Shown: positions 2,692-52,572 of the stretch, piece after piece
Position numbering within the stretch: the first letter of the stretch is position 1
How the letters are laid out: each line of letters opens with the position of its first letter
NCBI GenBank assembly: GCA_023412745.1
Contig: JAEZBZ010000276.1
Coordinates: 1-63,817, forward strand
Direction: 5' to 3'
Length of the DNA stretch: 63,817 nt
From: Pseudomonadota bacterium
Lineage (GTDB): Bacteria; Pseudomonadota; Alphaproteobacteria; Rhizobiales; Hyphomicrobiaceae
Position numbers and translations under genes: made by a program
Notes under the pieces: generated by a model
Told to the model about the DNA's origin: nothing
Seen by the model: only the letters and a program-made list of their open reading frames with translations
Database searches by the model: none

Positions 2692-4017
2692 ATGACGAAA
2701 ATTACGCGCCGCGATTTCGCCAAGCTGGCGGGTGTGGCTGGTATGGCCGGCGTCGGCACATCGGCATTTGGCCGGTTTGCAATCGCGCAGGGCGCTGCAA
2801 AAATCGTGGTGGTCGGTGGCGGGGCCGGCGGTGCCACTGTCGCGCACTTCCTGAAGAAGGGTGATCGGAAGCTCGACGTGACGCTGATCGAGGCCAACGC
2901 CCGCTATAGCTCGTCGTTCTTCTCCAACCTGTACCTCGGTGGCTTCCGGTCTTTCGACTCGCTGAACCACGACTATGCGGCGCTGACCAAACTCGGCGTC
3001 AAAGTCGTTCGCGACTACGCCTCCGATGTCGACACCTCGGCGAAATCGGTGACGACGCGCGGCGGCCGCAAGTTCAGCTACGACAAGCTGGTTCTCTCAC
3101 CGGGCATCGACATCAAGTACGACTCGATCGCCGGCTATTCGCGCGAAGCGGCGCAGATCATGCCGCACGCCTACAACACCGACGGCGCCCAGAAGGCGCT
3201 GCTGAAGAAGCAGATCGACTCCATGAAGGACGGCGGCACGGTCATCATGGCGATGCCCAACAATCCCTATCGCTGCCCGCCCGGCCCGTATGAGCGCATG
3301 TGCATGATCGCGCACATCCTTAAGACGAAAAAGCCGAAGTCCAAGCTGATCGTGCTCGATCCGAAGAAGGCTTTCTCGAAGCAGCCGGTCTTCATGGAAG
3401 CGGTGAACCGCTACTATAAGGACATCATCGAGCTCAACCTGACCAATGAGATCGACAGCTTCGCGGTTACTCGCGTTGACCCGAAGACGCGCGAAGTCGA
3501 GATCAAGGACGGCAAGAAGTGGACCGGCGATGTGGTCAACGTCATTCCGCAGCAGCGGGCTGGCGAGATCGCGATCAAGGCCGGCTGCGCTGAAGGCGAC
3601 TGGTGCCCCATCAATCCGGACAGCTTCGCTTCGGCGAAGGTGAAGGACGTCTATGTTCTCGGCGACGCCACGATCGCGACTGAAATGCCGAAGTCGGCGT
3701 TCTCGGCCAACAGCCAGGCCAAGGTCGTTGTGGCCGACATCCTGAGCGCGGTGTCGCAGAAGGAAAAGTTCCCGGCCCGCTTCCGCAACACCTGCTGGTC
3801 ACTGGTTGCGCCGGACGATTGCATCAAGGTCGGCGCCAACTATCAGCCAGCGGAAGGTAAGCTAGCGTCGTCCGGCGGTTTCGTATCGAAGCCTGGTGAG
3901 GATGCCGAGGTGCGTAAGCAGAACTACGCTGAGAGCGTTGGTTGGTACGACAGCATCATCACCGAGATGTTTGCCAAGGCGCCGTCAGCTCCGGCTGCCA
4001 AGAAGAAGAAGGGCTGA
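2692..4017 (+). CDS. soxF: Flavocytochrome c sulfide dehydrogenase flavoprotein (SoxF/FccB)
   Basis: Tat motif TRRDF, GGGAGG FAD site, RCPPGPYER and NTCWS catalytic cysteines, PKSAFSANSQAK. Confidence 0.92.
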   Translation: MTKITRRDFAKLAGVAGMAGVGTSAFGRFAIAQGAAKIVVVGGGAGGATVAHFLKKGDRKLDVTLIEANARYSSSFFSNLYLGGFRSFDSLNHDYAALTKLGVKVVRDYASDVDTSAKSVTTRGGRKFSYDKLVLSPGIDIKYDSIAGYSREAAQIMPHAYNTDGAQKALLKKQIDSMKDGGTVIMAMPNNPYRCPPGPYERMCMIAHILKTKKPKSKLIVLDPKKAFSKQPVFMEAVNRYYKDIIELNLTNEIDSFAVTRVDPKTREVEIKDGKKWTGDVVNVIPQQRAGEIAIKAGCAEGDWCPINPDSFASAKVKDVYVLGDATIATEMPKSAFSANSQAKVVVADILSAVSQKEKFPARFRNTCWSLVAPDDCIKVGANYQPAEGKLASSGGFVSKPGEDAEVRKQNYAESVGWYDSIITEMFAKAPSAPAAKKKKG

Positions 4018-4215: not shown

Positions 4216-4560
4216 TCAGCGCTTGCGGTCCTTCGCGGTCGCTTTGGCTGGCTTGGGCGCCAGCGAGCTGAAATAGACCGACAGGGCCTCGATCTGTTCG
4301 GCGTCCAGCGATTGCGCCACCGATGACATCGCCGGATTGTTGCGCGTGCCGGATTTATAGAAACCGAGCGTTTCGGTGAAGTAGTCCTTTTCCAGGCCGA
4401 CAATGGACGGAATGCCGTTGTCGACGCCATCGACGCGATGGCAGGCCGTGCACTCCTGCGACAGATGCTGGCCGTAAGCCATCAAGCGATCCGAGGCGGT
4501 TGCGGAGCCAGTGGCTGTTGCGCTCATTGCCAGTCCCATTGCCACCACGCGGCCCTTCAT
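4216..4560 (-). CDS. Small monoheme class I cytochrome c (c553/c4-like)
   Basis: Signal peptide, CTACH, PSIVG, RNNPAM distal Met. Confidence 0.88.
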   Translation of the reverse strand: MKGRVVAMGLAMSATATGSATASDRLMAYGQHLSQECTACHRVDGVDNGIPSIVGLEKDYFTETLGFYKSGTRNNPAMSSVAQSLDAEQIEALSVYFSSLAPKPAKATAKDRKR

Positions 4561-4627
4561 CAAGCATTCCTCGTATCGTGTGTGTTGTTATTGCAAGTCT
4601 TGGGCTTTCCCTCCGATAGGGCAGCCC

Positions 4628-38254: not shown

Positions 38255-38745
38255 CCCATCAACGGCTACATCGAACCCCGCTAGCGCGCCAACATCGCGC
38301 CAAGCTGAAGTTTGCCTGACGACACTCTGTGAGTCACCCGGGATTATGACGATTTGGTGGTCGTGGGGCGTATGCGGTCAATATTTATTCAGATAGCGGC
38401 TCATCGCGCCGGGTCGCTTTGAATGCGCGAGGAGCGCCGCCTCTGACAGCCGGCTTCGCGGTTGGCAACGGCACACGCCCGGTCATCGCTGTCACGATTG
38501 AGTAGGTGAGATGCACGCGGATACGGGAGCGGATCTGTCGACTCCTTGGTTCCTACCTCGTTCGGCGAATGCTTTGGCGCATCCGCATTACGGCGTCGCC
38601 GCGATTAACCTTAATGATCCGTTTTCTTGGAACGCCCGCATCCATTCTCACGGCGCACTGTTGTGTCCGTGCCGAAGGCGCGCCCTGCGAGCGCGATCGG
38701 ATTGAGAATCGTCGTGCGGCCCCGGAAAGCGAGCGGAGGAGAGCA

Positions 38746-41172
38746 ATGGCGTTAATCCGGAATATGCATCCCAGTCAGTGGGACTACAAAATTCCATTCT
38801 ACAATTATACGCCGCCAAAACCGGTGATACCGGAAAGGCCGGTGCCAACAAAGCCACCGAGTAAAGAGCCGCCGATCAAAGATTGGCATGCAGAAGACAA
38901 GTACGACCCTCCGAAGTACGAGCCACCAAAGTCCGGCCCGCCGAAGTACGATCCTCCGAAGTATGAGCCACCAAAGTACGATCCGCCGAAGCACCAGCCA
39001 CCGAAGCACGATCCGGATAAATACACAAAAGACAAATACTACGACCTGAAGAACCTTGAATCGCGCACCGCCGACGGCGGTAATAACGACGGCGACAACG
39101 ATCCCAATAACGACCGCGGGACGCATGATGCGCCGTTCGTTCGCGTAACGACCAGCAGTTACGTTGACGGCATCGGCCAGATTCCCGACCAGTCCCCTGG
39201 AGTCGGCGCCGCAACGCCGACCACGCTGCCGGCGCCGCGAGCGGTTAGCGATGCGGTCATGGCGCAAGGAGACGTGGATATCCCGAACGCCGCCGGCCTC
39301 AACGAATTCTTCCAGTTCTTTGGCCAGGCGCTGACGCATGACGTGGCCGAGGCGGCGACTGGGGCGTCAGGTGATCCGCCCTTGTTTCCCGCAGGATTGC
39401 CGTTTCCATTCGGTCGTACACCCTATGAGAACGGTACTCCGGAGACAGGTCCACGTCAGCAGATCAACGAGGAAACCAGTTTCCTCGATCTAAGCATGGT
39501 CTATGGCAATACGCAGACGATGCAGGATCTCGTGCGCGCAGATCTGTTCGATGCGCAAGGCAACAGCATCGGACAATCAGCCAAGCTTTTGATGGGAGCC
39601 AATGGGCTTTTGCCGACGATCAAGGATGTCGGCGAAGACTCCGGAAAAACGTCGCTTGAAGTTCTGGCGATATTTAGACCCGATGGCTTCGGTGGCCTTC
39701 CAGATCCGGCGACACCAGGTCTTGATCCGGCATCATTTGAAAATAGTTATTTTGCCGGTGACAATCGCGTCAATCAAACGCCCCTTCTGATCTCGCATCA
39801 GACGCTTTGGGCGAAAAATCACAATTACTGGGTCGATGAGCTGGCCAAAAAGAATCCGGGCTGGTCTCAGGATCAGCTGTTCGAGGCGGCTCGCGCGCTG
39901 AACGAGGCGAATTGGCAGCGCGTCGTATATGATGAGTACCTGCCGAAGCTACTGGGCGAAAATGCGCTTTCCGAGTATCAAGGTTATAAATCCAACGTCG
40001 ATCCGTCAGTCATAAATGAATGGACTACGGTTGCTTTCCGTTTCGGTCACGATCAGTCGAGCCAAAACCAGCGGCCGCTGACGGAAGGCGGCGGGCTCGC
40101 CTCTTTCACGCAGTTCACGTTCGCGCTGTTCACGTTGTCGGAGGCGTTTGCAGCGGGCGCGGATGGGGTGAGGACCGAAGAAGAGCTCAACGCCTGGATC
40201 CGCGGTCAGCTTTCCGCGCACACTCAGGAGATCGATGGGCTGGTCGTTGACGGAAACCGGAACGCCTTGTTCGGCATCGGAGCTACGGTCGATCTTGAGG
40301 TGTTCGACATCCTGCGTGCGCGCGATCACGGCGTTTGGAACTATAACGATCTGCGCGATGGCTTGGGCTTGTCGAGCTATGCCAGCTTCGACGAGTTCGG
40401 TGCCGCCAATGGTGTCGACGCCGCCCGCCTGCAAGCCCTTAAGGATGTCTATGGCAACGATATCGAGAAACTGGATTCGATCGTAGGCGGTCTGCTGGAG
40501 AAGAAGCATCTCGATAGCCAACTCGGCGAGACCTTCACCAAACTGAACATCATGCAATTTGAAGCGCTGCGTGATGGCGACCGCTTCTTCTATGAGGAGC
40601 GCCTCAAGGATTCGCCTGAGCTCCTCAAGCAAATCGAATCGACGTCAATGGCCGATATCATCGAGCGCAATACCGATATCGACTACATATACCGCGATGC
40701 GTTTGCGGCGCATGAGAGGCTGACCGCTAGCAACGGCAAGCTCGATGGCACCGAGGGTAAGGATCTCGCGATCGGTTCTGATAGTGCCGACGTGATCAAG
40801 ACCGGTGGCGGTGACGACGATGCTTACGGCGGAAAAGGCAGCGACCAGATCTATGCCGGAGCTGGCAACGACTGGATCTACGGCGGCGAAGGCGATGACT
40901 GCATCTGGACCGGCGCGGGACGCGATCTGATCGTGTTCGAGAAGAATTCCGGCAAGGACGCGGTCATGGACTTCGATACGCAGAACGACGTGCTGGACTT
41001 ATCCGCCTACGGCATCGAGTCGTGGAAAGATATCAAGGGCGCGATGAAAAACACGCCGTTCGGCGTGACGATCAAGCTCGACAAATACAACACCGTCGAA
41101 CTGGTGGGCGTAAAGGCCAAGGCGCTCACCGCCGATAACTTCGTGTTCGACGATCACGACGCCTACGCCTGA
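38746..41172 (+). CDS. Secreted heme peroxidase (peroxidase-cyclooxygenase superfamily) with N-terminal Pro/Lys/Tyr repeat and C-terminal RTX repeats
   Basis: GGAGGAG RBS; SRTADG, FGQALTHD, SFLDLSMVYG, GDNRVNQ, AFRFGH, RARDHG, LRDGDRFFYE; GGxGxD repeats. Confidence 0.9.
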   Translation: MALIRNMHPSQWDYKIPFYNYTPPKPVIPERPVPTKPPSKEPPIKDWHAEDKYDPPKYEPPKSGPPKYDPPKYEPPKYDPPKHQPPKHDPDKYTKDKYYDLKNLESRTADGGNNDGDNDPNNDRGTHDAPFVRVTTSSYVDGIGQIPDQSPGVGAATPTTLPAPRAVSDAVMAQGDVDIPNAAGLNEFFQFFGQALTHDVAEAATGASGDPPLFPAGLPFPFGRTPYENGTPETGPRQQINEETSFLDLSMVYGNTQTMQDLVRADLFDAQGNSIGQSAKLLMGANGLLPTIKDVGEDSGKTSLEVLAIFRPDGFGGLPDPATPGLDPASFENSYFAGDNRVNQTPLLISHQTLWAKNHNYWVDELAKKNPGWSQDQLFEAARALNEANWQRVVYDEYLPKLLGENALSEYQGYKSNVDPSVINEWTTVAFRFGHDQSSQNQRPLTEGGGLASFTQFTFALFTLSEAFAAGADGVRTEEELNAWIRGQLSAHTQEIDGLVVDGNRNALFGIGATVDLEVFDILRARDHGVWNYNDLRDGLGLSSYASFDEFGAANGVDAARLQALKDVYGNDIEKLDSIVGGLLEKKHLDSQLGETFTKLNIMQFEALRDGDRFFYEERLKDSPELLKQIESTSMADIIERNTDIDYIYRDAFAAHERLTASNGKLDGTEGKDLAIGSDSADVIKTGGGDDDAYGGKGSDQIYAGAGNDWIYGGEGDDCIWTGAGRDLIVFEKNSGKDAVMDFDTQNDVLDLSAYGIESWKDIKGAMKNTPFGVTIKLDKYNTVELVGVKAKALTADNFVFDDHDAYA
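38899..39045 (+). repeat. 15-bp coding tandem repeat, about 8-10 units, K(Y/H)(D/E)PP
   Basis: AAGTACGACCCTCCG, AAGTACGAGCCACCA, AAGTCCGGCCCGCCG, AAGTACGATCCTCCG, AAGTATGAGCCACCA, AAGTACGATCCGCCG, AAGCACCAGCCACCG, AAGCACGATCCGGAT. Confidence 0.9.
40747..40938 (+). repeat. RTX (hemolysin-type Ca-binding) nonapeptide repeats
   Basis: TGGGDDDAY GGKGSDQIY AGAGNDWIY GGEGDDCIW TGAGRDLIV. Confidence 0.88.
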
Positions 41173-41299
41173 GTGCGGAAGCGCTGTCCTGCGCGACAGA
41201 CGCGACAAACACGGTATGCCGGCGCGCTAACAGACGTGCGCCGGCATTTTCCCGAAACTTCCTGTATCGGCAAAACAGTCATCGGGGCGGACGGATCGA

Positions 41300-43066
41300 A
41301 TGGGTGATCGGACTGGCGGCAGGCGGCGGGCGCGCAACCGGCTTTCGGCGGTCCTGCGATCCATGGCGGGGGCATTCTTTGCCGTCGGCATTTTCAGCCT
41401 TTTCAGCAATCTCGCGATGCTGGTTGCGCCGCTCTACATGATGCAGATCTACGATCGCGTGCTGGCATCCGGCAGCAAGGAAACGCTGATCGCGCTGACC
41501 ATCCTGGCCATCGGCCTGCTGGCCATCAACGCATTGCTCGAGGTGTCCCGGTCGCGCCTTCTGGTGCGCATCGGTGCCAAGCTCGATGAAAAACTCAGCG
41601 CCAATCTTTTTACGTGCGCGTTCCAGGCGCGACTGGCCGGTAACGAACGCTCATCAAGCGAGCCGTTGCGCGATCTGGAATCCGTGCGCTCGTTCCTGAC
41701 CGGCTCCGGTATTATCGCGATTTTCGATGCGCCGTGGACGCCGATTTATCTCGCCGTGGTTTTCATATTGCATCCGGTGCTGGGTATCGTCGCCAGTATT
41801 GGCGCGATCATCATCGTGATCCTGGCATTGACCAGTGAGTTCACGGTCAAGAAGCCGCTGCTGGAAGCTGGGCGCGGTTCGCGCAACTCCACCGATTTCA
41901 CCGATCTGCTGACGCGCAATGCCGAGGCCGTTCATGCGATGGGCATGCTCGGCTCGCTGACGCGCAGGTGGGCGCGCTTCCATCACTACGGCGTGGCCTG
42001 GCAGGCGATCGCGAGCGATCGCATGGCGGTGCTTCAGTCGATCGCGAAACTGGTCAGGATGTCGTTGCAGATCGCTATGCTGGGGACCGGGGCCTGGCTG
42101 GTGCTAGATCACGCCATGTCGGCTGGATCGATCATTGCCGCGTCCATCATAACGGCTCGCGCTTTGGCGCCGGTCGAAATGCTGATCGGCCAATGGCGGC
42201 CGCTGGTCAATGCGCGCCAGGCCAGCCATCGCCTTCGCCAAACGCTGGAAACGATCGACGACTTCGATCCGAACCGAACAAGGCTGCCCCGCCCCGGTGG
42301 CCGCTTGCAGGTGAGTCAGGCGGGATATCGCCTGCCGGGCGCCACCGCGCCGCTGCTGAGCAACGTGTCGTTTGAATTGGAGGCAGGGCAGGCGCTGGGT
42401 ATCATAGGTCCGAGCGGCGCCGGCAAATCCACGCTGGTTCGCCTGCTGGTCGGGCTGACCGACACCAGCTTTGGCACGGTTCGCCTCGATGGCGCGGAAA
42501 TCACGAGCTGGCCACGCGAGGATCTCGGCGCATTCATCGGGTATCTGCCGCAGGACGTGCAGTTGATGAGTGGTACGGTGGCAGCCAACATTTCCCGTTT
42601 CGGCGATCACGACTCGCAGCGCATTACGGACGCGGCACAACTGGCGGGCGTGCACGAGATGATCCTGGAACTGCCGGACGGATATGAGACGCACGTCGGT
42701 GATGGCGGGCGCGCGCTGTCGGGCGGTCAGCGGCAGCGTATTGCGTTGGCGCGTGCGGTGTATGGCGATGTGCGGTTGATCATTCTCGACGAGCCGAACG
42801 CCAATCTCGATCACGATGGTGAGATGGCGCTGAGACGCACGCTGCAATGGCTCAAGCACAATCAGCGCACGGTCATCGTGGTTTCGCATACGCCGGCGGT
42901 GCTGCATTCGGTCGATCATCTGCTGGTGCTGCGCAATGGCCGCGTCGATCGCTTCGGCCCGCGCGATCGCGTGCTGGCGGATCTCGCCCGCAACGCGCCG
43001 CCGCGCCCGCTGCCGACGAACGTGCAGCAGCAAGGCCCATCCGTGCAGGAGGCGGCTCATGGCTGA
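41300..43066 (+). CDS. prtD: Type I secretion ABC permease/ATPase (PrtD/RsaD family)
   Basis: PLYMMQIYDRVL, FDAPW, GPSGAGKS, LSGGQRQR, LDEPNANLD. Confidence 0.92.
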   Translation: MGDRTGGRRRARNRLSAVLRSMAGAFFAVGIFSLFSNLAMLVAPLYMMQIYDRVLASGSKETLIALTILAIGLLAINALLEVSRSRLLVRIGAKLDEKLSANLFTCAFQARLAGNERSSSEPLRDLESVRSFLTGSGIIAIFDAPWTPIYLAVVFILHPVLGIVASIGAIIIVILALTSEFTVKKPLLEAGRGSRNSTDFTDLLTRNAEAVHAMGMLGSLTRRWARFHHYGVAWQAIASDRMAVLQSIAKLVRMSLQIAMLGTGAWLVLDHAMSAGSIIAASIITARALAPVEMLIGQWRPLVNARQASHRLRQTLETIDDFDPNRTRLPRPGGRLQVSQAGYRLPGATAPLLSNVSFELEAGQALGIIGPSGAGKSTLVRLLVGLTDTSFGTVRLDGAEITSWPREDLGAFIGYLPQDVQLMSGTVAANISRFGDHDSQRITDAAQLAGVHEMILELPDGYETHVGDGGRALSGGQRQRIALARAVYGDVRLIILDEPNANLDHDGEMALRRTLQWLKHNQRTVIVVSHTPAVLHSVDHLLVLRNGRVDRFGPRDRVLADLARNAPPRPLPTNVQQQGPSVQEAAHG

Positions 43067-44408
43067 CGCGCCGCGCCCCGAGAGGCTCGATCTGACCGAG
43101 CATCTGCCGGAAGTCGAGGTGCCGACGGGCTATCGAAAGTGGACGCTCCTGGGGCTCCTGACTCTGATCGCAGCCTTCGGCGGAATGGGCATGTGGGCGG
43201 CAACGGCGTCGCTCGACAGCGCCGTGGTGGCTGTCGGTAAGGTCACGGTCGCCAGTAAGCGAAAGGTCGTGCAGCACCTGGAAGGTGGCATCATACAGCG
43301 GCTGGCGGTGCGCGACGGGGATAGCGTGCAGGAAGGCGACGTGCTGATCGAATTCGATCCGACACGCGCGAAAACGCGTTTTGCGATTGTGCGCACTGGC
43401 TATCTTTCGGCACTGGCCGGCGAGGCGCGGCTCATCGCCGAGCGTGACGGCAAAAGTGCCATAGAATTTCCTGCCGAGGTCGTGAAAGAAGGCGCGCGCG
43501 ACCCCGAGATCGCGGAGTTCGCGGCTGGCCAGCAGCGCATCTTCGACACGCGCAAACGCGAGTTCGATGGCCAGACCGATATCCTCAACAGTCGCATCGA
43601 GCGGCTGAAGGAAGAGATCCGTGGCCAGACTGCGGAGCGCGCGGCGGCGCAGAAGCAGCTCGAGATGGCGCGTGAGGAACTTGCTATCCTAGAGGAGCTG
43701 TATCGTAAGCAGCACACCACACGGAACCGCATTCTTTCAGCGCGCCGCGAAGTGTTTCAGCTCGACGGCGCGATCGGCCGGCTGGCGTCCAGCATCGCGG
43801 CATCGGAAAAGGAGATCGGCGAGACCGGGCTTAGCATCGTGCAGACCCGCAACCGGATCATGACGGAAGTTGCGGCTGAGCTGAAAACAACACAGGCAAA
43901 GGTGCTGGAACTGCGTGAGCAGTATCTCGAAGGTCAGTCGGAAATCGAACGCGCGGTGTTGCGCGCGCCGGTGAGCGGAACGGTATTCGGCACCCAGGTG
44001 CACACCGTGGGCGGTGTGGCGCGGCCCGGGGCGACGCTGCTCGAAATCGTGCCGGATAATGACGATCTGGTGGTCGAGGTTCATCTGCGGCCGCAGGATG
44101 TGGATCTCGTCGCCATCGGTCAGACGACCGAGGTGCGCTTCAGCACGCTCAAGCAGCGCGCGATGCCGACCGTCGCTGGTCGATTGTCGTTCGTGTCGGC
44201 CGATACTGTGTCAGATCCTCGCGAGATGCAGCCCTATTACGTGGCCAACGTCGAAGTGAAGTTGGCGGAGCTTCAGCGCATTGGTGCGCTACGGCTTCAG
44301 CCCGGCATGCCGTGCGAAGTCCTGATCAAGACGGGGCAGAGGACGGCGCTGGCCTATCTGACCCAGCCGCTGGCGGAAAGCCTCAATCGCGCCTGGCGCG
44401 AGCGATGA
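43059..44408 (+). CDS. prtE: Type I secretion membrane fusion protein (PrtE/HlyD family)
   Basis: VQHLEGGII, RAPVSG, LQPGMP; overlaps the prtD stop. Confidence 0.92.
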   Translation: MADAPRPERLDLTEHLPEVEVPTGYRKWTLLGLLTLIAAFGGMGMWAATASLDSAVVAVGKVTVASKRKVVQHLEGGIIQRLAVRDGDSVQEGDVLIEFDPTRAKTRFAIVRTGYLSALAGEARLIAERDGKSAIEFPAEVVKEGARDPEIAEFAAGQQRIFDTRKREFDGQTDILNSRIERLKEEIRGQTAERAAAQKQLEMAREELAILEELYRKQHTTRNRILSARREVFQLDGAIGRLASSIAASEKEIGETGLSIVQTRNRIMTEVAAELKTTQAKVLELREQYLEGQSEIERAVLRAPVSGTVFGTQVHTVGGVARPGATLLEIVPDNDDLVVEVHLRPQDVDLVAIGQTTEVRFSTLKQRAMPTVAGRLSFVSADTVSDPREMQPYYVANVEVKLAELQRIGALRLQPGMPCEVLIKTGQRTALAYLTQPLAESLNRAWRER

Positions 44409-44658
44409 TAGGTGGTCCCCATCCGCCGCGTCTTTGGCTTGCAGCGTAATCGCCAGATCGTCAGATAGAGCCGCCAGCCACCGCAAACTGTGTGATGGGC
44501 AACATATAAATACCGCCGCAGCGGCCTATCCGCCGTCATCGCGCAGATGTGATCATCATTGCCACACCAGACGCGCTTAGATCGTGCACGCATCCCGTAT
44601 CGACGCACGCTTCCGCAGCGTTCGATGTGCCAGCAATCGCAAGCCCTGGGTGATCTCG

Positions 44659-45117
44659 ATGGCCAAACTGAACATCAATGGAAAAGATCTCGACCTCGAG
44701 GTGGATGGCGCGACGCCCCTGTTATGGGTGATCCGTGAGCACGCCGACCTGACCGGAACGAAATATGGCTGCGGCGTTGGTATGTGCGGTGCCTGCTCCG
44801 TGCATATCAATGGTGAAGTCCAGCGCTCCTGCATGATCGCGGTGTCGGACGTTCAGCCGACCGACAGGATCGTCACTATCGAGGGCCTGTCGGCCAATGG
44901 CGATCATCCGGTGCAGAAAGCATGGCTGGAGCTGGAAGTGGCGCAATGCGGCTACTGTCAGACCGGCCAGATCATGGCCGCGGCAGCTCTGCTGAAGAAC
45001 ACGCCCAAGCCCAGTGACGCCGATATCGACACCGCGATGACCAACATCTGTCGATGCGGCACCTACCAGCGGATCCGTCAGGCCGTGCATGCGGCCGCCG
45101 GTAGCAGCCAGGGTTGA
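44659..45117 (+). CDS. iorA: 2x[2Fe-2S] small subunit of an isoquinoline 1-oxidoreductase-like molybdoenzyme
   Basis: GTKYGCGVGMCGAC, QCGYCQ, NICRCG. Confidence 0.9.
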   Translation: MAKLNINGKDLDLEVDGATPLLWVIREHADLTGTKYGCGVGMCGACSVHINGEVQRSCMIAVSDVQPTDRIVTIEGLSANGDHPVQKAWLELEVAQCGYCQTGQIMAAAALLKNTPKPSDADIDTAMTNICRCGTYQRIRQAVHAAAGSSQG

Positions 45118-45129
45118 GGAGCGCGCGCC

Positions 45130-47334
45130 ATGACCATTACGACAGCACTTTCCCGCCGCAAGTTTCTCGTCACCGCCGCTGCTGCAGGTGGTGGACTCGC
45201 GCTCGGTATCGACGCCGGTGGTATCGGCCGCGCGCTCAGCCAGATCGCCATCGGCGGTTCGGTGGACGGCAGCGAAATCGGCGTCTGGGTTTTCATCAAA
45301 CCCGACGAAGAGGTCGTCATCCGCATTGCGCGCTCGGAAATGGGGCAAGGCACACTAACCGGCCTCGCACAGCTCGTCGCCGAGGAACTTGACTGCGACT
45401 GGTCGAAGGTGAAGGCCGAATATCCGACGCCGGGCGAGAACCTGGCACGTAATCGTGCCTGGGGCGACATGTCGACCGGCGGGTCGCGCGGCATTCGCGG
45501 GTCGCATGATTATGTGCGCCAGGGCGGTGCCGCCGCTCGACAGATGCTGCTGCAGGCAGCCGCCAACGAATGGAGCGTGCCCGTTGGTGAACTGGTAGTG
45601 GACAAGGGTGTCATCACACACGCTGCCTCCAAGCGCACCACGACCTACGGCAAGGTGGCGACGGCGGCCGGAAAACTGCCGGTGCCGGATCTGAAGACGA
45701 TGAAGCTGCGCGATCCGAAGGACTGGAAAATCGCCGGCAAGCCGCTGAAGCGCCTGGATACCCAAGACAAGCTGACCGGCAAGCTCGTCTACGCCATCGA
45801 CATCAATCTGCCGGACATGCTGACCGCGACCATCATGGACGCGCCGGTGTTCGGCCAGAAACTCACCAGCTACGACGAAGCCAGTGTCGAAGGCATGCCC
45901 GGTATCAAGGGCGTCTATCGCGTCGGCGAGACCGCGGTTGCGGTGGTCGCCGACACATTCTGGCAGGCCAAACAAGGACTGGATGCACTCAATCCGACCT
46001 GGGAGGAAGGCCCCAACAACAAGGTGTCGAGCAAGACCATCGCGGCGGTGCTGAACGAGGGGCTGACCTCGAAGGACGGCGTTTCCGTCGGCAATCAGGC
46101 CGGCGATGCCGACAAGGCGATTGCCGGCGCCGCCAAGAAGCTGGAGGCGGTCTACACCACGCCTTACTGGCATCACGTCACCATGGAGCCGATGAACTGC
46201 ACGGCGAAGTGGCCGGCGGACAAGTGCGAGGTCTGGGTGGCGTCGCAAAACGGCGAGGCGTCGCTTGCGGCGGCTGCCGAAGCGGCGGGACTGCGCCCAT
46301 CGCAATGCGAGGTCTACAAACACCACCTCGGCGGCGGGTTCGGCCGGCGCGGATTCCAGGATTACGTGACCAAGGCGGTGCTGCTGGCCAAGCAGATCCC
46401 CGGCGTCCCGGTGAAAACCATCTGGACGCGCGAGGAGGATATGCGCCAGGGCCGATTCAAGCCGATCGGTCACTGCAAGCTGGAAGCTGGGCTTGATGAC
46501 AAAGGCAATCTCGTCGGCTTCAAGATGCGCATCGCCGCGCCGTCGATCATGGCCTACGCTTTTCCGCAGAGGCTTGGCGCCGGCGGCATGGACCCGATCG
46601 CATTCCAGGGGCTCAACCGTGGTGGCGCCGAGGGCCAGATCGGCTACACCATTCCGAACCTGCTGATCGAGCACGCCATGCGCAATACGCACGTGCCGCC
46701 CGGCTTCTGGCGCGGCGTCAACAACAACCAGAACGCCGTGTTCCTCGAATGCTTCATGGATGAAGTCGCCAAGGAAGCCGGCAAGGATCCGCTAGAATTC
46801 CGGCGGGCGATGATGGCCAATCATCCCAAGCATCTTGCCGTTTTGAATGCGGTGGCCGAGAAGGCCGGCTGGGAAACCAGCAAGCCGCCGGAGGGGCAGT
46901 TCCGTGGCATTGCTCAGCATATGGGCTACGGCAGCTATGTGGCTGCGGTGGCGGAAGTGTCCGTATCGGACAACGGCCGGCTCAAGATCCATCGCCTCAT
47001 CATGGGCACGGACAGCGGGCACGTCGTCAATCCGGACCAGGTGATCGCGCAGGTCGAGGGATCGGTGGCGTACGGCCTCGGCGCCACGCTGCACCAGAAA
47101 ATCACCATCGATGAGGGCCGGGTCGTGGAGGACAATTTCCACACCTATCCTTCGATGACCCTGGAGGAGTTTCCGAAGATCGAGACCGTGCTGGTGCCCT
47201 CGGGCGGCTTCTGGGGCGGTGTTGGCGAACCGACAATCTGCGTTGCGGCGCCGGCCGTGCTCAACGCGATCTTCGCGGCAACCGGCAAACCGGTGCGCTC
47301 GTTGCCGCTGGCTGACGTGAAGCTCAGGGCGTGA
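45130..47334 (+). CDS. iorB: Tat-exported molybdopterin subunit, xanthine oxidase family (IorB-like)
   Basis: SRRKFL Tat motif, SEMGQG, TGGSRG, LGGGFGRR, FWRGV, GGVGEP catalytic Glu. Confidence 0.9.
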   Translation: MTITTALSRRKFLVTAAAAGGGLALGIDAGGIGRALSQIAIGGSVDGSEIGVWVFIKPDEEVVIRIARSEMGQGTLTGLAQLVAEELDCDWSKVKAEYPTPGENLARNRAWGDMSTGGSRGIRGSHDYVRQGGAAARQMLLQAAANEWSVPVGELVVDKGVITHAASKRTTTYGKVATAAGKLPVPDLKTMKLRDPKDWKIAGKPLKRLDTQDKLTGKLVYAIDINLPDMLTATIMDAPVFGQKLTSYDEASVEGMPGIKGVYRVGETAVAVVADTFWQAKQGLDALNPTWEEGPNNKVSSKTIAAVLNEGLTSKDGVSVGNQAGDADKAIAGAAKKLEAVYTTPYWHHVTMEPMNCTAKWPADKCEVWVASQNGEASLAAAAEAAGLRPSQCEVYKHHLGGGFGRRGFQDYVTKAVLLAKQIPGVPVKTIWTREEDMRQGRFKPIGHCKLEAGLDDKGNLVGFKMRIAAPSIMAYAFPQRLGAGGMDPIAFQGLNRGGAEGQIGYTIPNLLIEHAMRNTHVPPGFWRGVNNNQNAVFLECFMDEVAKEAGKDPLEFRRAMMANHPKHLAVLNAVAEKAGWETSKPPEGQFRGIAQHMGYGSYVAAVAEVSVSDNGRLKIHRLIMGTDSGHVVNPDQVIAQVEGSVAYGLGATLHQKITIDEGRVVEDNFHTYPSMTLEEFPKIETVLVPSGGFWGGVGEPTICVAAPAVLNAIFAATGKPVRSLPLADVKLRA

Positions 47335-47795
47335 GTTTGCGACGACAGCCCCTGCTGGCAGCGGTCGCCGCCGTTGTGGCGGTGGCCCTGCCTGTGGCTT
47401 CCGGTTCGGCGGAGCCGTTGATCCCCTACGACATCGTGGGGGACGCGATCCCCGAACCGCTGGGCAAGCTCGCCGGTGATCCGGCGCGTGGAAGAACGCT
47501 GGTGCTGGATCGCAGTGTCGGCAATTGCCTGATCTGCCATAAGGCGCCGGAACCGGGTGAACGCTTCATGGGTGAGTTGGGCCCGGACCTGACCGGTGTC
47601 GGTCGCAGGTTGAGCCCAGGCCAGATCCGCCTGCGTCTCGTCGACCAGAGCAGCCTCAATGCGAAAACGCTGATGCCGCCATACTATCGCGTCGACGGCC
47701 TGACCCGCGTGGCGCAGCGCTATCGGGGCAAGCCGGTGCTCGACCCGCAGCAGGTTGAAGATGTGGTCGCGTATCTTACGTCATTGAAAGATTGA
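47331..47795 (+). CDS. soxX: SoxX-like monoheme cytochrome c
   Basis: GDAIPEPL..GDPARGR, GNCLICH, GELGPDL, TLMPPYY; GTGA overlap with the iorB stop. Confidence 0.88.
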   Translation: MSLRRQPLLAAVAAVVAVALPVASGSAEPLIPYDIVGDAIPEPLGKLAGDPARGRTLVLDRSVGNCLICHKAPEPGERFMGELGPDLTGVGRRLSPGQIRLRLVDQSSLNAKTLMPPYYRVDGLTRVAQRYRGKPVLDPQQVEDVVAYLTSLKD

Positions 47796-47809
47796 AACAG
47801 GCAACGAAC

Positions 47810-48289
47810 ATGACGGTGTCCAATCCGTTGCAAAATGGGCCGACGCGCCGCGAGCTGATCGCCGGCGGAATCGCAATTGCCTGCATTCCGCTGACAGGCA
47901 CTGCTGCCCTGGCAACGCCGCAGGAGATGGAAAGCGCGATCCGTGCGTTGACCGGCGGCGCCACGGTGACACCCGGCGGCATGAAGCTGGTGCTGCCGGA
48001 ACTCGCCGAGAACGGCAACATCGTGGCGCTGGCCGTGACGGTGGAAAGCCCGATGACGGCGCAGGATCACGTCAAGGCCGTGCACGTCTTTTCGGCACTC
48101 AACCCGATCGCGACGGTGGCGCGGTTTCATCTGTCGCCGCGCGCCGGCGCAAATCCGACCGTCAACACCAACATTCGTCTCGCTGATTCACAGCGCGTCA
48201 CGGCCATCGCGGCGATGAGCGACGGCAGCTTCCGCTCAGCCGACGCCAATGTCGTGATCACCATTGCCGCCTGTATCGATGGGGGCTAG
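47810..48289 (+). CDS. SoxY paralog with non-canonical AACIDGG arm
   Basis: TRRELI Tat motif, PELAENGNIV, VESPMT..DHV, NIRLADSQ, C-terminus VVITIAACIDGG. Confidence 0.88.
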   Translation: MTVSNPLQNGPTRRELIAGGIAIACIPLTGTAALATPQEMESAIRALTGGATVTPGGMKLVLPELAENGNIVALAVTVESPMTAQDHVKAVHVFSALNPIATVARFHLSPRAGANPTVNTNIRLADSQRVTAIAAMSDGSFRSADANVVITIAACIDGG

Positions 48290-48298
48290 GAGTACACC

Positions 48299-48622
48299 AT
48301 GCCACAGCCGGCCCGCATCGCGATGCCGACGTCCGCCAAAAAGGGCGAGGTGATCCAGATCCGCACAATCATCCAGCACGAAATGGAGACAGGCTATCGC
48401 CGCGACAATCGCGGGCTTGCCATCCCGCGCCACATTATCAGCGACCTCGTGGTGACATACGCTGGCGAGGAAATCTTCCGCTTCGACATGTTTCCGGGCG
48501 TGTCGGCCAATCCGTACGTCGGGTTCACCACCACGGCGACGCAAACCGGCGAGATCGTTTTCACCTGGACCGACGATCGCGGTGAGACAACCACGGAGAG
48601 GCGCAAGCTAACAGTCACATGA
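48299..48622 (+). CDS. soxZ: SoxZ paralog
   Basis: HEMETGYRRD..IPRHII..VSANPY. Confidence 0.88.
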   Translation: MPQPARIAMPTSAKKGEVIQIRTIIQHEMETGYRRDNRGLAIPRHIISDLVVTYAGEEIFRFDMFPGVSANPYVGFTTTATQTGEIVFTWTDDRGETTTERRKLTVT

Positions 48623-49407
48623 TGCCGACGTTGCCCGCCATGCGTCGACTTCTGGCCGCTGCGTTCGCCACGCTGGCGGCAACGGTCGTTGCGGCCGAGG
48701 AGCGGCCATCGCCGCCGCTGCCTGGTGAGTATTTCCAGTCTGAGGAAACCCGGCGGCTGCAGGCGGATGAATTCGCCAATCCCGGCATGCTGTGGGTGGA
48801 GCAGGGGGCGACGCTATGGAACAAGCAGGACGGTACGGAAGGCAAGTCTTGCGCGAGCTGCCACCAACAGGCGCCGGTCAGCATGAAAGGCGTGGCCGCG
48901 CGCTATCCTCTGGTGGATGCTGGCGGCCGGCTGCTCAATATCGAGGGGCGCATCAACCAGTGCCGGACTGAGCGCATGGGCGCGCCGGCGCTCACCTACG
49001 CGAGTGACGAATTGTTGGCGCTGACGGCCTATATCGCACATCAGTCGCGCGGCATACCCCGTGACGTCGCGGTCGATGGCCCGGCGAGACCGTTCTTCGA
49101 GGCCGGACGCGCCTTCTATGCGCAGCGCCAGGGCCAGCTCAATCTCGCCTGCGGCCAATGCCACGATGAGAACGCGGGAAAAAAGCTGCGCGGCGATATC
49201 ATCAGTCAGGGCCAGACGCATGGATGGCCGGCGTATCGGCTGGAATGGCAGGCCATGGGATTGCTGCATCGCCGGCTCAGGGCGTGCAGCCTTGGTGTCA
49301 GGGCCGAAGTGCTCGACTACGGCGCGCCGGAATATCTCGCGCTCGAGCTCTATCTCGCATGGCGCGGCCATGGTCTGCCGATGCAAAGCCCCGGCATCAG
49401 GCGCTAA
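48619..49407 (+). CDS. soxA: Diheme SoxA-like cytochrome c
   Basis: DEFANPGMLWV, CASCH, RINQC, GQLNLACGQCH, WPAYRLEWQ, HRRLRAC. Confidence 0.9.
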   Translation: MMPTLPAMRRLLAAAFATLAATVVAAEERPSPPLPGEYFQSEETRRLQADEFANPGMLWVEQGATLWNKQDGTEGKSCASCHQQAPVSMKGVAARYPLVDAGGRLLNIEGRINQCRTERMGAPALTYASDELLALTAYIAHQSRGIPRDVAVDGPARPFFEAGRAFYAQRQGQLNLACGQCHDENAGKKLRGDIISQGQTHGWPAYRLEWQAMGLLHRRLRACSLGVRAEVLDYGAPEYLALELYLAWRGHGLPMQSPGIRR

Positions 49408-49539
49408 GTCTGCAAAAGATGGCAGGGTGAGACCGTTTAACCTTCAAAGTGGACGTAAGTCCTTGATGAGTCTAAAAGAACTCTGCACGCAGATTTCCGT
49501 CTCAATTTTGTGGTCAATCGACCTCCCGCCAGGTGGGCA

Positions 49540-51033
49540 ATGCCGATCACGCAAACCTCTTTTCTCAGAACCAGCGCACTGTTGCTCATCGTCGGGCTGT
49601 TGGTTCTCGTTGGAATTGTCGGTTCGACGCTTTGGCTTATTGAGCAGACCCAGCATCATTTCTCCGCAGTGCTGCAAGCCAGGGATCTGAGAACGACGAC
49701 GGCGAGCCTTCGCATAGCGTTGCACGAGATGGAGTCCAGCCAGCGCGGCTACATCCTGTCGCAAGAAGAAGTCTATTTAGCCCCCTACAACACCGCTCGC
49801 GGCAGCATTTTTCCGCATTACGAACGTCTCCGCGAAGTCGTCCGGAACTACCCGAAGTATCAACAGCGCGTGGACGCCCTGGCGCCGGCCCTCAAGCAGA
49901 AGCTCGACGAACTGCAACAGACCATCGATCTCGTGCGCGCTGGGCGTCAGGCCGAGGCTATTGCCATCGTCGCGACCGATCGCGGCAAGCAACTCATGGA
50001 TGATGCGCGCGATCTGTTGGTCGAGATCATGAGGGATGCCGACGCCAATGTGACATCCAGCAGCGAAGAACAGACGGCCAGCACCAACATGCTGCACAAG
50101 GTCGCAATCGTCGGTGGCATTGTCATAATCCTGGTGATGGGAAGTTCCGTCTGGACTGCGTTGAACTATACGCGCGATCTGCTCAAAGCCCGGCAGGAAG
50201 TCGAAAAGCTGAATGCCGATCTCGAAAATCGCGTGAACGAGCGAACTCAGGATCTCATTCGTGCCAACGAGGAAGTCCAGCGGTTTGCCTATATCGTCAC
50301 CCATGACTTGCGTGCGCCCCTGGTCAATATCATGGGCTTCACCAGCGAGTTGGACGCGACGATGAAGTCTATACAGGCCTACGTGCTGGCGGACGGCGAT
50401 CCGCTTAGCGAGCAGGAGATCCAGGAGGCGCGGACAGCCGCCTCGGAAGACCTGCCCGAGGCGATCGGCTTTATCCGGTCCTCGACCCGCAAGATGGATG
50501 GCCTCATCAATGCGATCCTGAAGATCTCGCGCGATGGCAAACGTCCGATAAAGCCGGAAAAAATCGACCTGAGAGGGCTGCTGGAGGCCAATCTGGCCAC
50601 GATCCAGCATCAGATCGTAGATGCCGAGGGGACAACCAATTTGACTATCGGCGTGCCAGAAATCGTCTCCGACCGGTTGTCGCTTGAGCAGGTGGTTGGC
50701 AACTTGCTTGACAATGCCGTGAAGTATCGGGTTCCTGATCGGCCTCTCGAGATCCGCGTTGCGGTCGATCGTGCGGCCGGCCGGCAAGTGCGCATCGATC
50801 TCACCGACAATGGTCGTGGCATCGCCGCGGAGGATCACCAGAGGGTATTCGATCTTTTCCGCCGCTCGGGCCAGCAGAGCCAGCCGGGAGAAGGCATCGG
50901 CCTTGCACATGTGCGCACGCTGGTGCGCAGCCTCGGTGGCGACATCACCCTGTCCTCGGTCTTCGGCGAAGGCAGTACTTTTTCCATACTCCTGCCGCTG
51001 GACGTCAGGACCGTCACAAGGAGTAGCGAATGA
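49540..51033 (+). CDS. CHASE3-domain sensor histidine kinase
   Basis: TM-ESSQRGY..YLAPY..GKQLMD-TM, FAYIVTHDLRAPL, NLLDNAVKY, DNGRGI, GIGL. Confidence 0.92.
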   Translation: MPITQTSFLRTSALLLIVGLLVLVGIVGSTLWLIEQTQHHFSAVLQARDLRTTTASLRIALHEMESSQRGYILSQEEVYLAPYNTARGSIFPHYERLREVVRNYPKYQQRVDALAPALKQKLDELQQTIDLVRAGRQAEAIAIVATDRGKQLMDDARDLLVEIMRDADANVTSSSEEQTASTNMLHKVAIVGGIVIILVMGSSVWTALNYTRDLLKARQEVEKLNADLENRVNERTQDLIRANEEVQRFAYIVTHDLRAPLVNIMGFTSELDATMKSIQAYVLADGDPLSEQEIQEARTAASEDLPEAIGFIRSSTRKMDGLINAILKISRDGKRPIKPEKIDLRGLLEANLATIQHQIVDAEGTTNLTIGVPEIVSDRLSLEQVVGNLLDNAVKYRVPDRPLEIRVAVDRAAGRQVRIDLTDNGRGIAAEDHQRVFDLFRRSGQQSQPGEGIGLAHVRTLVRSLGGDITLSSVFGEGSTFSILLPLDVRTVTRSSE

Positions 51034-51473
51034 ACGACGCGAAGCCTGTTTTGATCATCATGATCGAGGACGACGAGGGGCATGCCCGGCTCATCGAAAA
51101 GAATATCCGTCGTGCCGGCGTCAACAACGAGATCATCCCCTTCACCAATGGGACGGATGCGCTTGCCTACCTCCTGGGCCCAGATGGCGCTGGTGAAGTG
51201 AGCGCCGGCCGCCAGCTTCTCATTCTGCTTGATCTCAACCTGCCCGATATGACGGGCGTATCCATTCTGGAAAAGGTGAAGAACAACGCGCACACGCGTC
51301 GTTCGCCCGTGGTCGTTCTGACGACGACAGACGACGAGCGCGAAATCCAGCGTTGCTACGATCTCGGCGCCAACGTCTATATCACCAAGCCGGTGGACTA
51401 CGACGGTTTTGCCAACGCGATCCGCCAGTTGGGACTGTTCTTCGCCGTGATGCAGGTTCCGGAGACCGAATAG
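51030..51473 (+). CDS. Single-domain response regulator (Rcp-like)
   Basis: IEDD, LLDLNLP, VVVLTT, YITKP. Confidence 0.93.
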   Translation: MNDAKPVLIIMIEDDEGHARLIEKNIRRAGVNNEIIPFTNGTDALAYLLGPDGAGEVSAGRQLLILLDLNLPDMTGVSILEKVKNNAHTRRSPVVVLTTTDDEREIQRCYDLGANVYITKPVDYDGFANAIRQLGLFFAVMQVPETE

Positions 51474-51474
51474 C

Positions 51475-52572
51475 GTGCCAAACCGCGTATTCCGTGTGCT
51501 GCAGATCGACGACGATGTAGTGCTTGCGCGCCTGGTCGAAAAGGCGCTTACGCGGCGCGGCTATTCGTATGAACACGCGCGCGATGCCGCGTCCGGCCTC
51601 GATCGCATAGCTAAGGGCGGCATTACCGTCCTGGTGCTCGATCATTTTCTCGATAGCGGAACCGGCTTGTCCGTGCTGGAGAAGCTGAAGGAAATTCCGC
51701 AAGCGCCGCCGGTCGTATACGTGACTGGATCGCAGGAATTGAGCGTCGCGGTGGAAGCGCTGAAGGCGGGCGCGTCCGATTATGTTCTGAAGAGCGTGGG
51801 AGAGGAGTTTATCCTGCTGCTCGTCAGCGCCATTGAGCAGGCGATCGAAAAGGCAAGGCTCGAGCGGCAAAAGGAACTCGCGGAACAGGAAGTGCGGGCC
51901 GCTCGTGATCGGGCCGAAATTCTGCTGGCAGAAGTGAACCACAGGGTCGCGAACAGCTTGGCGCTGGTGGCGTCCCTGGTCCGCATGCAGGCTTCCGCTG
52001 TCTCCGATCCGGATTCACGAAATGCCCTTAATGAAACACAGGTCCGCATCCTGGCGGTCGCCGGCCTGCACCGCCGTCTCTATACGTCCGACGATGTCCG
52101 CTCGGTTTTCCTCAATTCTTACCTGAATTCTCTGATCGACGAGCTAGACAAGACAATGCACGCAGCGGGCAAGCTCGCGCGCGTGAAGACCGACCTCGAC
52201 GCGATGAGCGTACCGACCGACATCGCGGTGCTGGTCGGGTTGATTGTCACCGAACTGCTGACCAATGCCTACAAGTATGCCTATCCGGGCAATCAGTCCG
52301 GGGAAGTTCGTGTTTTGATGCGCAAAGCCAGCCCGACAAGGGCAACGCTGATGATCGAAGACGACGGGGTTGGCTGGGACGGGACTGGCGAGGCCAAGGG
52401 CACGGGGCTCGGCACGCGTCTCGTCGCGGCAATGGCAGGGCGATTGGGAACCTCCATCGTCTATGGCGACGGGCAGGCGGGCACACGTATTGCGTTCGAG
52501 CTTCGCGTGGCGGACGAGAACGAGGAAGAGGCGGCCGCCGAGGACGACGCAGGGCCGATCGAGACGCCTTGA
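51475..52572 (+). CDS. REC-HisKA_2 (HRxxN) cytoplasmic histidine kinase
   Basis: N-terminal REC, EVNHRVANSL, ELLTNAYKYA, DDGVG, GLG. Confidence 0.9.
   Translation: MPNRVFRVLQIDDDVVLARLVEKALTRRGYSYEHARDAASGLDRIAKGGITVLVLDHFLDSGTGLSVLEKLKEIPQAPPVVYVTGSQELSVAVEALKAGASDYVLKSVGEEFILLLVSAIEQAIEKARLERQKELAEQEVRAARDRAEILLAEVNHRVANSLALVASLVRMQASAVSDPDSRNALNETQVRILAVAGLHRRLYTSDDVRSVFLNSYLNSLIDELDKTMHAAGKLARVKTDLDAMSVPTDIAVLVGLIVTELLTNAYKYAYPGNQSGEVRVLMRKASPTRATLMIEDDGVGWDGTGEAKGTGLGTRLVAAMAGRLGTSIVYGDGQAGTRIAFELRVADENEEEAAAEDDAGPIETP

Follow-up and report, generated by a model that had tools for sequence, protein, structure and literature searches.

Why would a molybdenum (Mo) hydroxylase of the xanthine-oxidase family be encoded together with proteins that load and carry sulfur in the periplasm? 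The question is raised by the stretch of DNA analysed here, the 63,817 nucleotides of contig JAEZBZ010000276.1 (assembly GCA_023412745.1; Alphaproteobacteria, Hyphomicrobiaceae), to which we refer as the window. At positions 44659-49407 of its + strand, six same-strand genes, iorA, iorB, soxX, soxY', soxZ and soxA, were all confirmed at the coordinates at which they had been annotated. The first two encode the small and the large subunit of the Mo enzyme (IorAB), the others the cytochromes SoxX and SoxA (SoxXA) and a variant sulfur carrier (SoxY'Z). The canonical Sox (Kelly-Friedrich) thiosulfate-oxidising system consists of SoxXA, SoxYZ, SoxB and SoxCD. An initial annotation, made from the sequence alone, had taken the six genes for a non-canonical unit that does not depend on SoxB or SoxCD and that unites the Mo enzyme with the variant carrier. 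Judged from the genes, a chance origin of the set is excluded, because of the family scores and because the same gene set recurs elsewhere.

Linkage of iorAB with a variant SoxYZ carrier

Canonical SoxY carries its cysteine in the arm GGCGG, whereas the arm of SoxY' reads AACIDGG; as compared to the AACIE of the family that fits it best, Asp replaces Glu and two Gly are added. This family, TIGR04487 ('SoxY-related AACIE arm protein'), is the best NCBIfam match of SoxY', with 158.7 bits (158.5 bits in the search of sampled genomes reported below), in both cases below the curated cut-off of 172; relatives of SoxY' in other loci exceed this cut-off. The model for true SoxY, TIGR04488, gives 96.1 bits and thus also remains below its cut-off (125). 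Over the linked loci, the consensus of the arm is [ASGP]AC[ILTVA][DE].

Sporadic linkage to iorAB, which the initial annotation had named beforehand as its refutation, was not seen, whichever gene served as the starting point. IorB has at least 589 relatives in contigs representing one genome per species, and the best 80 of them (58-96% identity) were examined: soxX/soxY' lies no more than 4 kb downstream in 60 of these 80 loci, and 5 of the remaining 20 reach the end of the contig less than 1.1 kb further on. From the side of SoxY', the 19 closest of 22 related loci bear non-canonical arms, and 18 of these 19 have iorA-iorB just upstream on the same strand, the contig of the last one beginning at soxX. 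Furthermore, TIGR04487 was searched in 401 evenly drawn Alphaproteobacteria, where 74 genomes gave a match with E<=1e-20 and 18 exceeded the cut-off. The flanks were examined for these 18, for the 20 next-best, for the 20 lowest-scoring and for one more region, leaving out about 30 mid-scoring places. Among the 18 carriers over the cut-off, 15 adjoin iorAB, a contig end interrupts 2 and one stands without it, at L146; this locus holds soxE-soxF-soxX-Y'-Z-A alone, and the same genome has an IorB at 55.5% identity on another contig. In the 59 alphaproteobacterial loci taken together, Ala precedes the arm Cys in 35 carriers, of which 28 adjoin iorAB or a paralogue (4 do not, 3 are cut), as compared to none of the 24 carriers with Gly before Cys, whose arms are mostly GGCGG or GGCG, plus GGCTS, GGCGAL, GGCGAG, GGCIT and DGCA. 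Related genomes are not independent of one another, and all these counts are given without a statistical test.

The sample of 301 Burkholderiales contained 19 genomes over the TIGR04487 cut-off. The loci fetched for 18 of them adjoin iorAB in 17 cases and are cut at soxX in one, and the 19th (L074) is also linked. The module is found in about 4-6% of the sampled genomes of Alphaproteobacteria and Burkholderiales. Linkage across two proteobacterial classes strongly supports the view that the operon represents a non-canonical unit, independent of SoxB/SoxCD, whose Mo enzyme and variant carrier belong together.

A variant SoxYZ of their own also accompanies more distant IorAB paralogues (33-48% identity) in 7 alphaproteobacterial loci (L173 and L175-L180); therefore, the pairing has been kept through the divergence of both partners. 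At L173:6848-10566, in the same genome as L146, the iorAB paralogue (36% identity) lies divergently beside a SoxY with the arm GACEGLGFTY and a SoxZ; this SoxY-like protein, used as a query, matched only its own contig. Tandem copies of iorAB precede a single carrier set at L012:245-8071 (three iorB, two iorA) and at L175:7790-13491 (two of each). At L014:7277-11721, which stems from a long-read metagenome bin, the matches to iorB, soxY', soxZ and soxA each come in two or three frame-shifted pieces; these frame shifts are probably assembly indels and not decay. Finally, three loci of one genus (L181, L182 and L183) have soxX, soxY (arm LGACS or VGACS) and soxZ without iorAB within about 7 kb; soxA and a gene for a flavocytochrome c sulfide dehydrogenase (FCSD) were also matched in L182 and L183, and L181 gave soxX, soxY and soxZ only.

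We also considered whether the Ala-Cys pair marks Ior-linked carriers in general. This is so among the sampled Alphaproteobacteria and is broken by the Burkholderiales, in 8 of whose 18 loci soxYZ comes after iorAB and soxXA is absent within about 7 kb; the arms of these 8 are AACIEG, AACLEELPA, TGCG, SSCT (twice), TACGG, AGCGL and GGCDP. SoxA is present elsewhere in the genome in 8 of 8 cases, and the idea that SoxXA is dispensable was rejected on this ground. The carrier thus keeps closest to the Mo enzyme, yet SoxXA is always available in those 8 genomes.

These loci bear on an explanation in which the Sox cytochromes serve as electron wiring, i.e., SoxX and dihaem SoxA, with three haems between them, would replace the trihaem cytochrome subunit of the relatives of IorAB, while SoxY'Z plus SoxXA would form a separate, co-regulated sulfur module. 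Enzymes of the IorAB type need a cytochrome c partner, and the aldehyde dehydrogenase 8GY3, the solved relative, includes such a subunit. In the window, the start of soxX lies on the stop of iorB, and no cytochrome gene besides soxX and soxA is found in the operon. Set against this, iorAB stands next to soxYZ without soxXA within about 7 kb not only in the 8 Burkholderiales loci but also in L173, L178, L179 and L017, and the arm type tracks iorAB. Even though the SoxA encoded elsewhere in all 8 Burkholderiales genomes tempers the argument that the carrier is the tighter partner, we consider wiring of this kind improbable.

Conservation and phylogeny of the module

Among solved chains, the one nearest to IorB is 8gy3_C (E 4e-73, residues 4-731), which belongs to an aldehyde dehydrogenase and forms its large subunit. 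In 62 Sox-linked IorB sequences, Q73, G401/G403-R407 and G699-I703, including E700, are invariant and G402 is nearly so; accordingly, the stretches MGQG, GGGFGRR and GVGEPT are invariant or nearly so. We take the conserved Gln, GGGFG and Glu (GEP) to have the roles that they play in other family members, with Glu as the catalytic base. On IorAB, none of the NCBIfam equivalog models comes near its cut-off, and therefore no substrate can be named from them.

The haem and cysteine motifs that the initial annotation had ascribed to SoxX and dihaem SoxA are indeed kept. In Ior-linked loci, at least 97% of the rows retain C78xxCH, C115, C178xxCH and C223 (within the RRlR.C motif) of SoxA (69 rows), the CxxCH and the later M-P of SoxX (72 rows) and the eight Cys of IorA (86 rows). 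From this pattern of conservation, the catalytic apparatus is under selection. Sox-linked and unlinked IorB differ by a few residues near the conserved motifs (524-526, 693, 706 and Cys366) and by no indels, a comparison which carries little weight.

The possible association of the Mo subunit with the carrier was modelled by co-folding IorB (38-734), SoxZ and SoxY' (42-165), three chains in one job, each with a 62-row alignment, the pairs not being separable. The score was 0.78, and 0.76 when an unrelated protein replaced IorB; because this swap hardly changed the score, we attribute it to the SoxY'-SoxZ pair.

The IorB tree (85 rows) was calculated with FastTree only, and its long-branch warnings concern outgroup paralogues. 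On this tree, the label 'linked' needs 6 changes, as compared to 20.4 in shuffles, and the unlinked IorB form two subclades, of 12 and 5 rows when cut loci are counted in, with one single row besides. The Sox linkage of IorB thus looks ancestral. Three of five genomes with an unlinked IorB have a TIGR04487 match over the cut-off elsewhere, and therefore at least some unlinked IorB genes are paralogues. In a FastTree of SoxA (90 rows), whose low resolution makes it a rough check, the SoxA of the module stand apart from 12 canonical ones, with a nearest path of more than 1.3 changes per column, and those from Ala-Cys loci that are cut or unlinked are nested within the linked ones.

Neighbouring genes and independence from SoxB and SoxCD

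In 76 linked loci, what recurs is the six genes themselves (74-76 loci), a flavoprotein of ~425 residues with a twin-arginine translocation (Tat) signal (40 loci) and a small monohaem cytochrome c (22 loci), with no other neighbours. The flavoprotein matched Pfam FCSD_central and FCSD-flav_bind in 6 of 6 examples scanned. Its gene lies between iorB and soxX in Bradyrhizobium, Microvirga and Skermanella, and after soxA in Noviherbaspirillum; the Bradyrhizobium loci L061, L073, L075, L087, L097 and L100 carry iorAB-soxEF-soxXY'ZA. The 76 loci show no recurring gene for SoxB, SoxCD or an XdhC-like protein, nor any for organosulfur uptake or cleavage. A gene for a flavin adenine dinucleotide (FAD) subunit was found neither in the operon nor among the conserved neighbours of the linked loci. 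By family assignment, all non-Mo parts of the unit are sulfur-oxidation proteins.

SoxB and SoxC were surveyed in 26 alphaproteobacterial genomes with the module, the source genome included, 20 of which are of high quality. SoxB over the cut-off is absent from 21 of the 26 (17 of the 20 high-quality genomes) and present in 5, and SoxC over the cut-off is absent from 19 and present in 7; therefore, the unit must work without both. The module occurs without SoxB over the cut-off in Noviherbaspirillum album, Microvirga massiliensis and Rhodomicrobium sp. R_RK_3, and one Bradyrhizobium strain holds both the module and SoxB. A role of the module as a stand-in for SoxCD in truncated canonical systems was also considered and was rejected, SoxC being present in all 5 SoxB-positive genomes.

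The source genome is a metagenome-assembled genome of 3.83 Mb in 374 contigs, 86% complete. SoxB was not found in this 86%-complete genome, and no SoxC over the cut-off was found there either, the sole match to the SoxC model reaching 190 bits (cut-off 420). As the initial annotation had stated, the operon itself contains no soxB or soxCD, and a separate canonical soxYZ, with a SoxY ending in ...TIGGCGG, lies at 1087-1933 on the - strand. It is adjoined by a thioredoxin-like gene, an FCSD flavoprotein gene (2692-4017), a small cytochrome c gene (4216-4563, - strand) and an ArsR-type regulator. This FCSD gene is 41 kb away from the operon, in which no soxF was found. No SoxA or SoxX beyond the copies of the operon was found in the source genome, whose single SoxXA may serve both carriers, canonical SoxYZ and SoxY'Z.

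Possible activity of IorAB

The genes can be read as a self-contained periplasmic sulfur-oxidation unit built around the carrier protein SoxY'Z. The single cysteine of SoxY' would be charged oxidatively with reduced inorganic sulfur by SoxXA and, where the operon also encodes an FCSD/SoxEF sulfide dehydrogenase (about half of the related loci), by that enzyme as well. Tat-exported IorAB would act directly on the sulfur held by the arm, at the position that SoxB/SoxCD occupy in the canonical system, and its electrons would exit via two [2Fe-2S] clusters to c-type haems. The most likely chemistry would be an oxidation that uses water and removes four electrons, turning the sulfane sulfur on the carrier into a labile S-sulfinate, which would release sulfite and free the carrier without SoxB or another hydrolase. 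Of this reading, the gene set, its conserved linkage, its independence from SoxB/SoxCD and the intact cofactor and catalytic motifs are observed, and the entry of the SoxY' arm into IorB, the substrate, the product and the electron path are inferred. IorAB would be the protein that processes the cargo of the carrier because it stands where SoxB and SoxCD stand and because most hosts are without either. As for the nature of this cargo, the frequent FCSD (40 of 76 loci) points to inorganic sulfur over an organic thiol. That IorAB acts on sulfur carried by SoxY', in place of SoxB/SoxCD, is our tentative proposal, which we prefer to the other explanations and hold to be quite possible without calling it probable.

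Several points weigh against this proposal. The known substrates of the xanthine-oxidase family are aldehydes, N-heterocycles, CO and H2, and we know of no member of the family that oxidises sulfur. The contact between SoxY' and IorB is a presumed one. Carriers with an Ala-Cys arm and no iorAB within about 7 kb exist in L146 and L181-L183, and the arms of IorAB-linked Burkholderiales carriers vary (TGCG, SSCT, AGCGL, GGCDP), no single arm motif being required.

Two reports on related gene sets add to these points. In Starkeya novella, a second sox cluster, soxX2Y2Z2A2F2 (Snov_1982-1977), accompanies a xanthine-oxidase-family Mo enzyme (Snov_1975/1976) (Kappler and Nouwens, 2013; PMC3797975). 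The cluster showed very low expression on glucose, methanol and thiosulfate, and SoxAX2 and SoxYZ2 were undetected in the proteome; the authors assigned no function there, considering either no functional significance or a role under other conditions. By its published gene description, this cluster resembles the present operon in that copies of SoxX, SoxY, SoxZ and SoxA share one operon with two Mo-enzyme genes, without SoxB/SoxCD, and differs from it in that the Mo genes follow soxF2 by gene number, whereas here they precede soxX. The arrangement is noted in print once (S. novella, 2013), without an assigned function, and our full-text literature searches on SoxY/SoxAX with xanthine-oxidase-type enzymes found no paper assigning one. 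The initial annotation was made without knowledge of this work.

The second report concerns the genus Bradyrhizobium, genomes of which carry the module in our sample. The soxY2 gene of Bradyrhizobium diazoefficiens USDA110 is presumably located in this module; soxY2, or 'sox locus II', was reportedly treated by Masuda et al. in 2010. It is a second soxY that is unneeded for thiosulfate oxidation: only soxY1 of the two soxY genes is required, and the soxY2 mutant is described as wild-type for thiosulfate (PMC5748708). Together with the very low S. novella expression and the proteins undetected under three growth conditions, this phenotype would fit a redundant, functionless duplicate, the first of the two possibilities that Kappler and Nouwens considered for their cluster. 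On the other hand, the gene set and its catalytic residues are kept across two classes, also in genomes that have no canonical Sox to duplicate. We regard redundancy as very improbable.

The main rival of the proposal, and a serious one, is repair of the Mo centre, the second of the two mechanisms put forward in the initial annotation. Every xanthine-oxidase-family hydroxylase needs a cyanolysable Mo=S, and persulfide donors can reactivate the desulfo enzyme. After export, the cytoplasmic XdhC or cysteine desulfurase could not reach the Mo centre; a persulfide on SoxY'Z, loaded by SoxXA and/or FCSD from thiosulfate or sulfide, would then restore the labile Mo=S of the exported IorAB, which would itself oxidise an aldehyde or an N-heterocycle. 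Besides the biochemical precedent, this explanation agrees with the lack of a recurring XdhC-like gene in the 76 loci. It is also favoured by the several lineages of IorAB paralogues, each with its own SoxYZ, and by the single carrier sets that follow two or three tandem iorAB copies (L175, L012), both of which would be expected of a service function more than of one pathway. A maintenance role would likewise fit the very low expression in S. novella. However, four to six translationally coupled accessory proteins, including two cytochromes and often a flavocytochrome, would be a heavy apparatus for repair, and sister IorAB clades (~60% identity) as well as most other periplasmic members of the family are without an adjacent carrier. 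Furthermore, thiosulfate coupled by SoxXA would be expected to yield a thiosulfonate, not a persulfide, in genomes without SoxB. Repair of Mo=S by SoxY'Z is therefore rather unlikely in our judgement, if by no means negligible.

An organic cargo on SoxY', the first mechanism of the initial annotation, would bring the enzyme back to its familiar chemistry: a thiol joined by SoxXA, or a periplasmic aldehyde bound as hemithioacetal, would be hydroxylated or oxidised by IorAB at its carbon. Indeed, carbon is the known target of the family, the nearest solved relative is an aldehyde dehydrogenase, and many hosts are methylotroph-like soil genera, judged by record titles. In addition, the TIGR04557 carriers, a family which SoxY' and SoxZ match weakly (44.7 and 49.8 bits, cut-off 140), are tied to periplasmic quinoprotein dehydrogenases. 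The composition of the loci speaks against such a cargo, in that the recurrent extra gene encodes a sulfide dehydrogenase flavoprotein (40 of 76 loci), the loader retains all SoxA/SoxX features used for inorganic sulfur and no organosulfur uptake or cleavage gene recurs; family members, moreover, oxidise free aldehydes without a thiol. We find an organic cargo hard to sustain. Together with electron wiring and functionless redundancy, it belongs to the less likely explanations.

Carried to its full extent, the proposal that IorAB acts on carrier-bound sulfur would make it the first xanthine-oxidase-family enzyme to oxidise sulfur and not carbon, as a dehydrogenase that draws on water, needs no oxygen and has a protein-bound persulfide as its substrate. 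In combination with SoxY'Z and SoxXA (and FCSD), it would complete a periplasmic sulfide-to-sulfite route without SoxB/SoxCD in soil and freshwater heterotrophs. In this complete form, we think the proposal unlikely.

Features of the operon and its surroundings

The features of the six genes are collected in Table 1.

Table 1. Genes of the operon in the window, with predicted products and supporting family matches
Gene	Position	Strand	Product	Family match or other feature
iorA	44659..45117	+	Small subunit with two [2Fe-2S] clusters of a xanthine-oxidase-family Mo enzyme	Pfam Fer2_2 6e-29, Fer2 5e-9
iorB	45130..47334	+	Tat-exported molybdopterin-binding large subunit	Pfam MoCoBD_1/2; TIGR01409
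soxX	47331..47795	+	Monohaem cytochrome c	TIGR04485 74.8 bits, cut-off 61
soxY'	47792..48289	+	Variant sulfur-carrier subunit with twin-arginine leader and C-terminal arm ...VITIAACIDGG	Pfam SoxY 2e-26
soxZ	48299..48622	+	Partner of SoxY', no signal peptide	Pfam SoxZ 3e-28; TIGR04490 94.2 bits, cut-off 76
soxA	48619..49407	+	Dihaem SoxA, both Cys haem ligands present	TIGR04484 224 bits, cut-off 110

The junctions read in the DNA bear out the close spacing described in the initial annotation, with overlaps or gaps of no more than 14 bp. A 12-base gap separates iorA from iorB, the sequence GTGA contains both the stop of iorB and the start of soxX, a 9-base gap lies between soxY' and soxZ, and the start of soxA overlaps the stop of soxZ in ATGA. 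The gene soxY' may start at the TTG at 47792, which gives a 4-base overlap with soxX, or at the alternative ATG at 47810, which gives a 14-base gap. The ATG of iorA at 44659 matches the N-termini of the homologues (MAKLN...).

With respect to export, a Tat signal had been claimed for both IorB and SoxY'. IorB matches the Tat-signal model TIGR01409 with 19.5 bits (cut-off 16.7), and the claim holds for this protein; the twin-arginine motif of SoxY', TRRELI, is seen by eye and called by no model. The translations of IorA and SoxZ begin without a signal-like stretch, in agreement with the initial annotation, and IorA is presumably exported together with IorB. A search for RNA data covering 44400-49600 found none; two data sets, one of them labelled RNA but probably DNA, gave only short contig pieces of low depth.

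Directly upstream of the operon, the region 38506-44408 encodes a protein of 888 residues that combines RTX calcium-binding repeats with an animal-haem-peroxidase domain; next come a type I secretion ABC transporter (41300-43066) and an HlyD-family protein (about 43056-44408). From its domains, this region has the look of a bacterial peroxidase that is secreted by an exporter of its own. Downstream of soxA, positions 49510-52572 hold a CHASE3 histidine kinase, a single-domain response regulator and a receiver-HisKA_2/HWE kinase hybrid. These two-component genes were considered as regulators of the operon and rejected, as other genomes do not keep them next to the module. At the start of the window, beside the canonical soxZ, an open frame of at least 378 residues (3-1136, - strand) runs off the window end; it has one CxxCH and a signal-like N-terminus, no Pfam match and no second copy in the source genome.

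Comparison with known systems and significance

The operon shares with the canonical Sox system a SoxXA-type loader with Cys-ligated haems, a Tat-exported SoxY with its SoxZ, a single Cys near the C-terminus of the carrier and the presence of a Mo enzyme. It differs from it in the lack of the SoxB hydrolase and in the family of the Mo enzyme, which in the canonical system belongs to the sulfite-oxidase family (SoxC with dihaem SoxD) and here to the xanthine-oxidase family (MCD-type fold, two [2Fe-2S]). On the side of the Mo enzyme, the closest parallels are 8GY3, the membrane-bound aldehyde dehydrogenase of acetic acid bacteria, and IorAB isoquinoline 1-oxidoreductase, which have the same two-subunit core, a small 2x[2Fe-2S] subunit and a large Mo subunit with a Tat signal, and likewise no FAD subunit. 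In contrast to 8GY3, the operon has no dedicated trihaem cytochrome subunit, and its Mo enzyme is joined to a carrier with a Cys arm. A carrier tied by gene context to a periplasmic dehydrogenase, and not to SoxB/SoxCD, is also known from TIGR04557, the quinoprotein-dehydrogenase-associated SoxYZ-like family; there, however, the carrier is a fused single chain and its partner is a pyrroloquinoline quinone enzyme.

A 2026 survey of Sox evolution describes many paralogues of soxA, soxX, soxY and soxZ outside sox clusters, and its main text does not contain the terms isoquinoline, xanthine, aldehyde or Ior (PMC13500833). Surveys of sulfur-oxidation genes score SoxB, SoxCD, Dsr and Hdr, and SoxXA-SoxYZ sets without SoxB are usually dismissed as truncated or redundant copies. 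The set described here is a distinct, conserved unit with its own Mo enzyme, found mostly in organisms without canonical Sox; it is a widespread variant of the Sox system, and the pairing of carrier and Mo enzyme is retained in many soil and freshwater bacteria. Should SoxY'Z repair the Mo=S of IorAB, the unit would be the first periplasmic maintenance system for the molybdenum cofactor. Should IorAB instead act on carrier-bound sulfur, as we tentatively propose, it would bring a new type of reaction to a well-studied enzyme family and a new oxidative branch to the sulfur cycle in soils, and a sulfide-to-sulfite route of this kind would go uncounted by current sulfur-cycle gene surveys.

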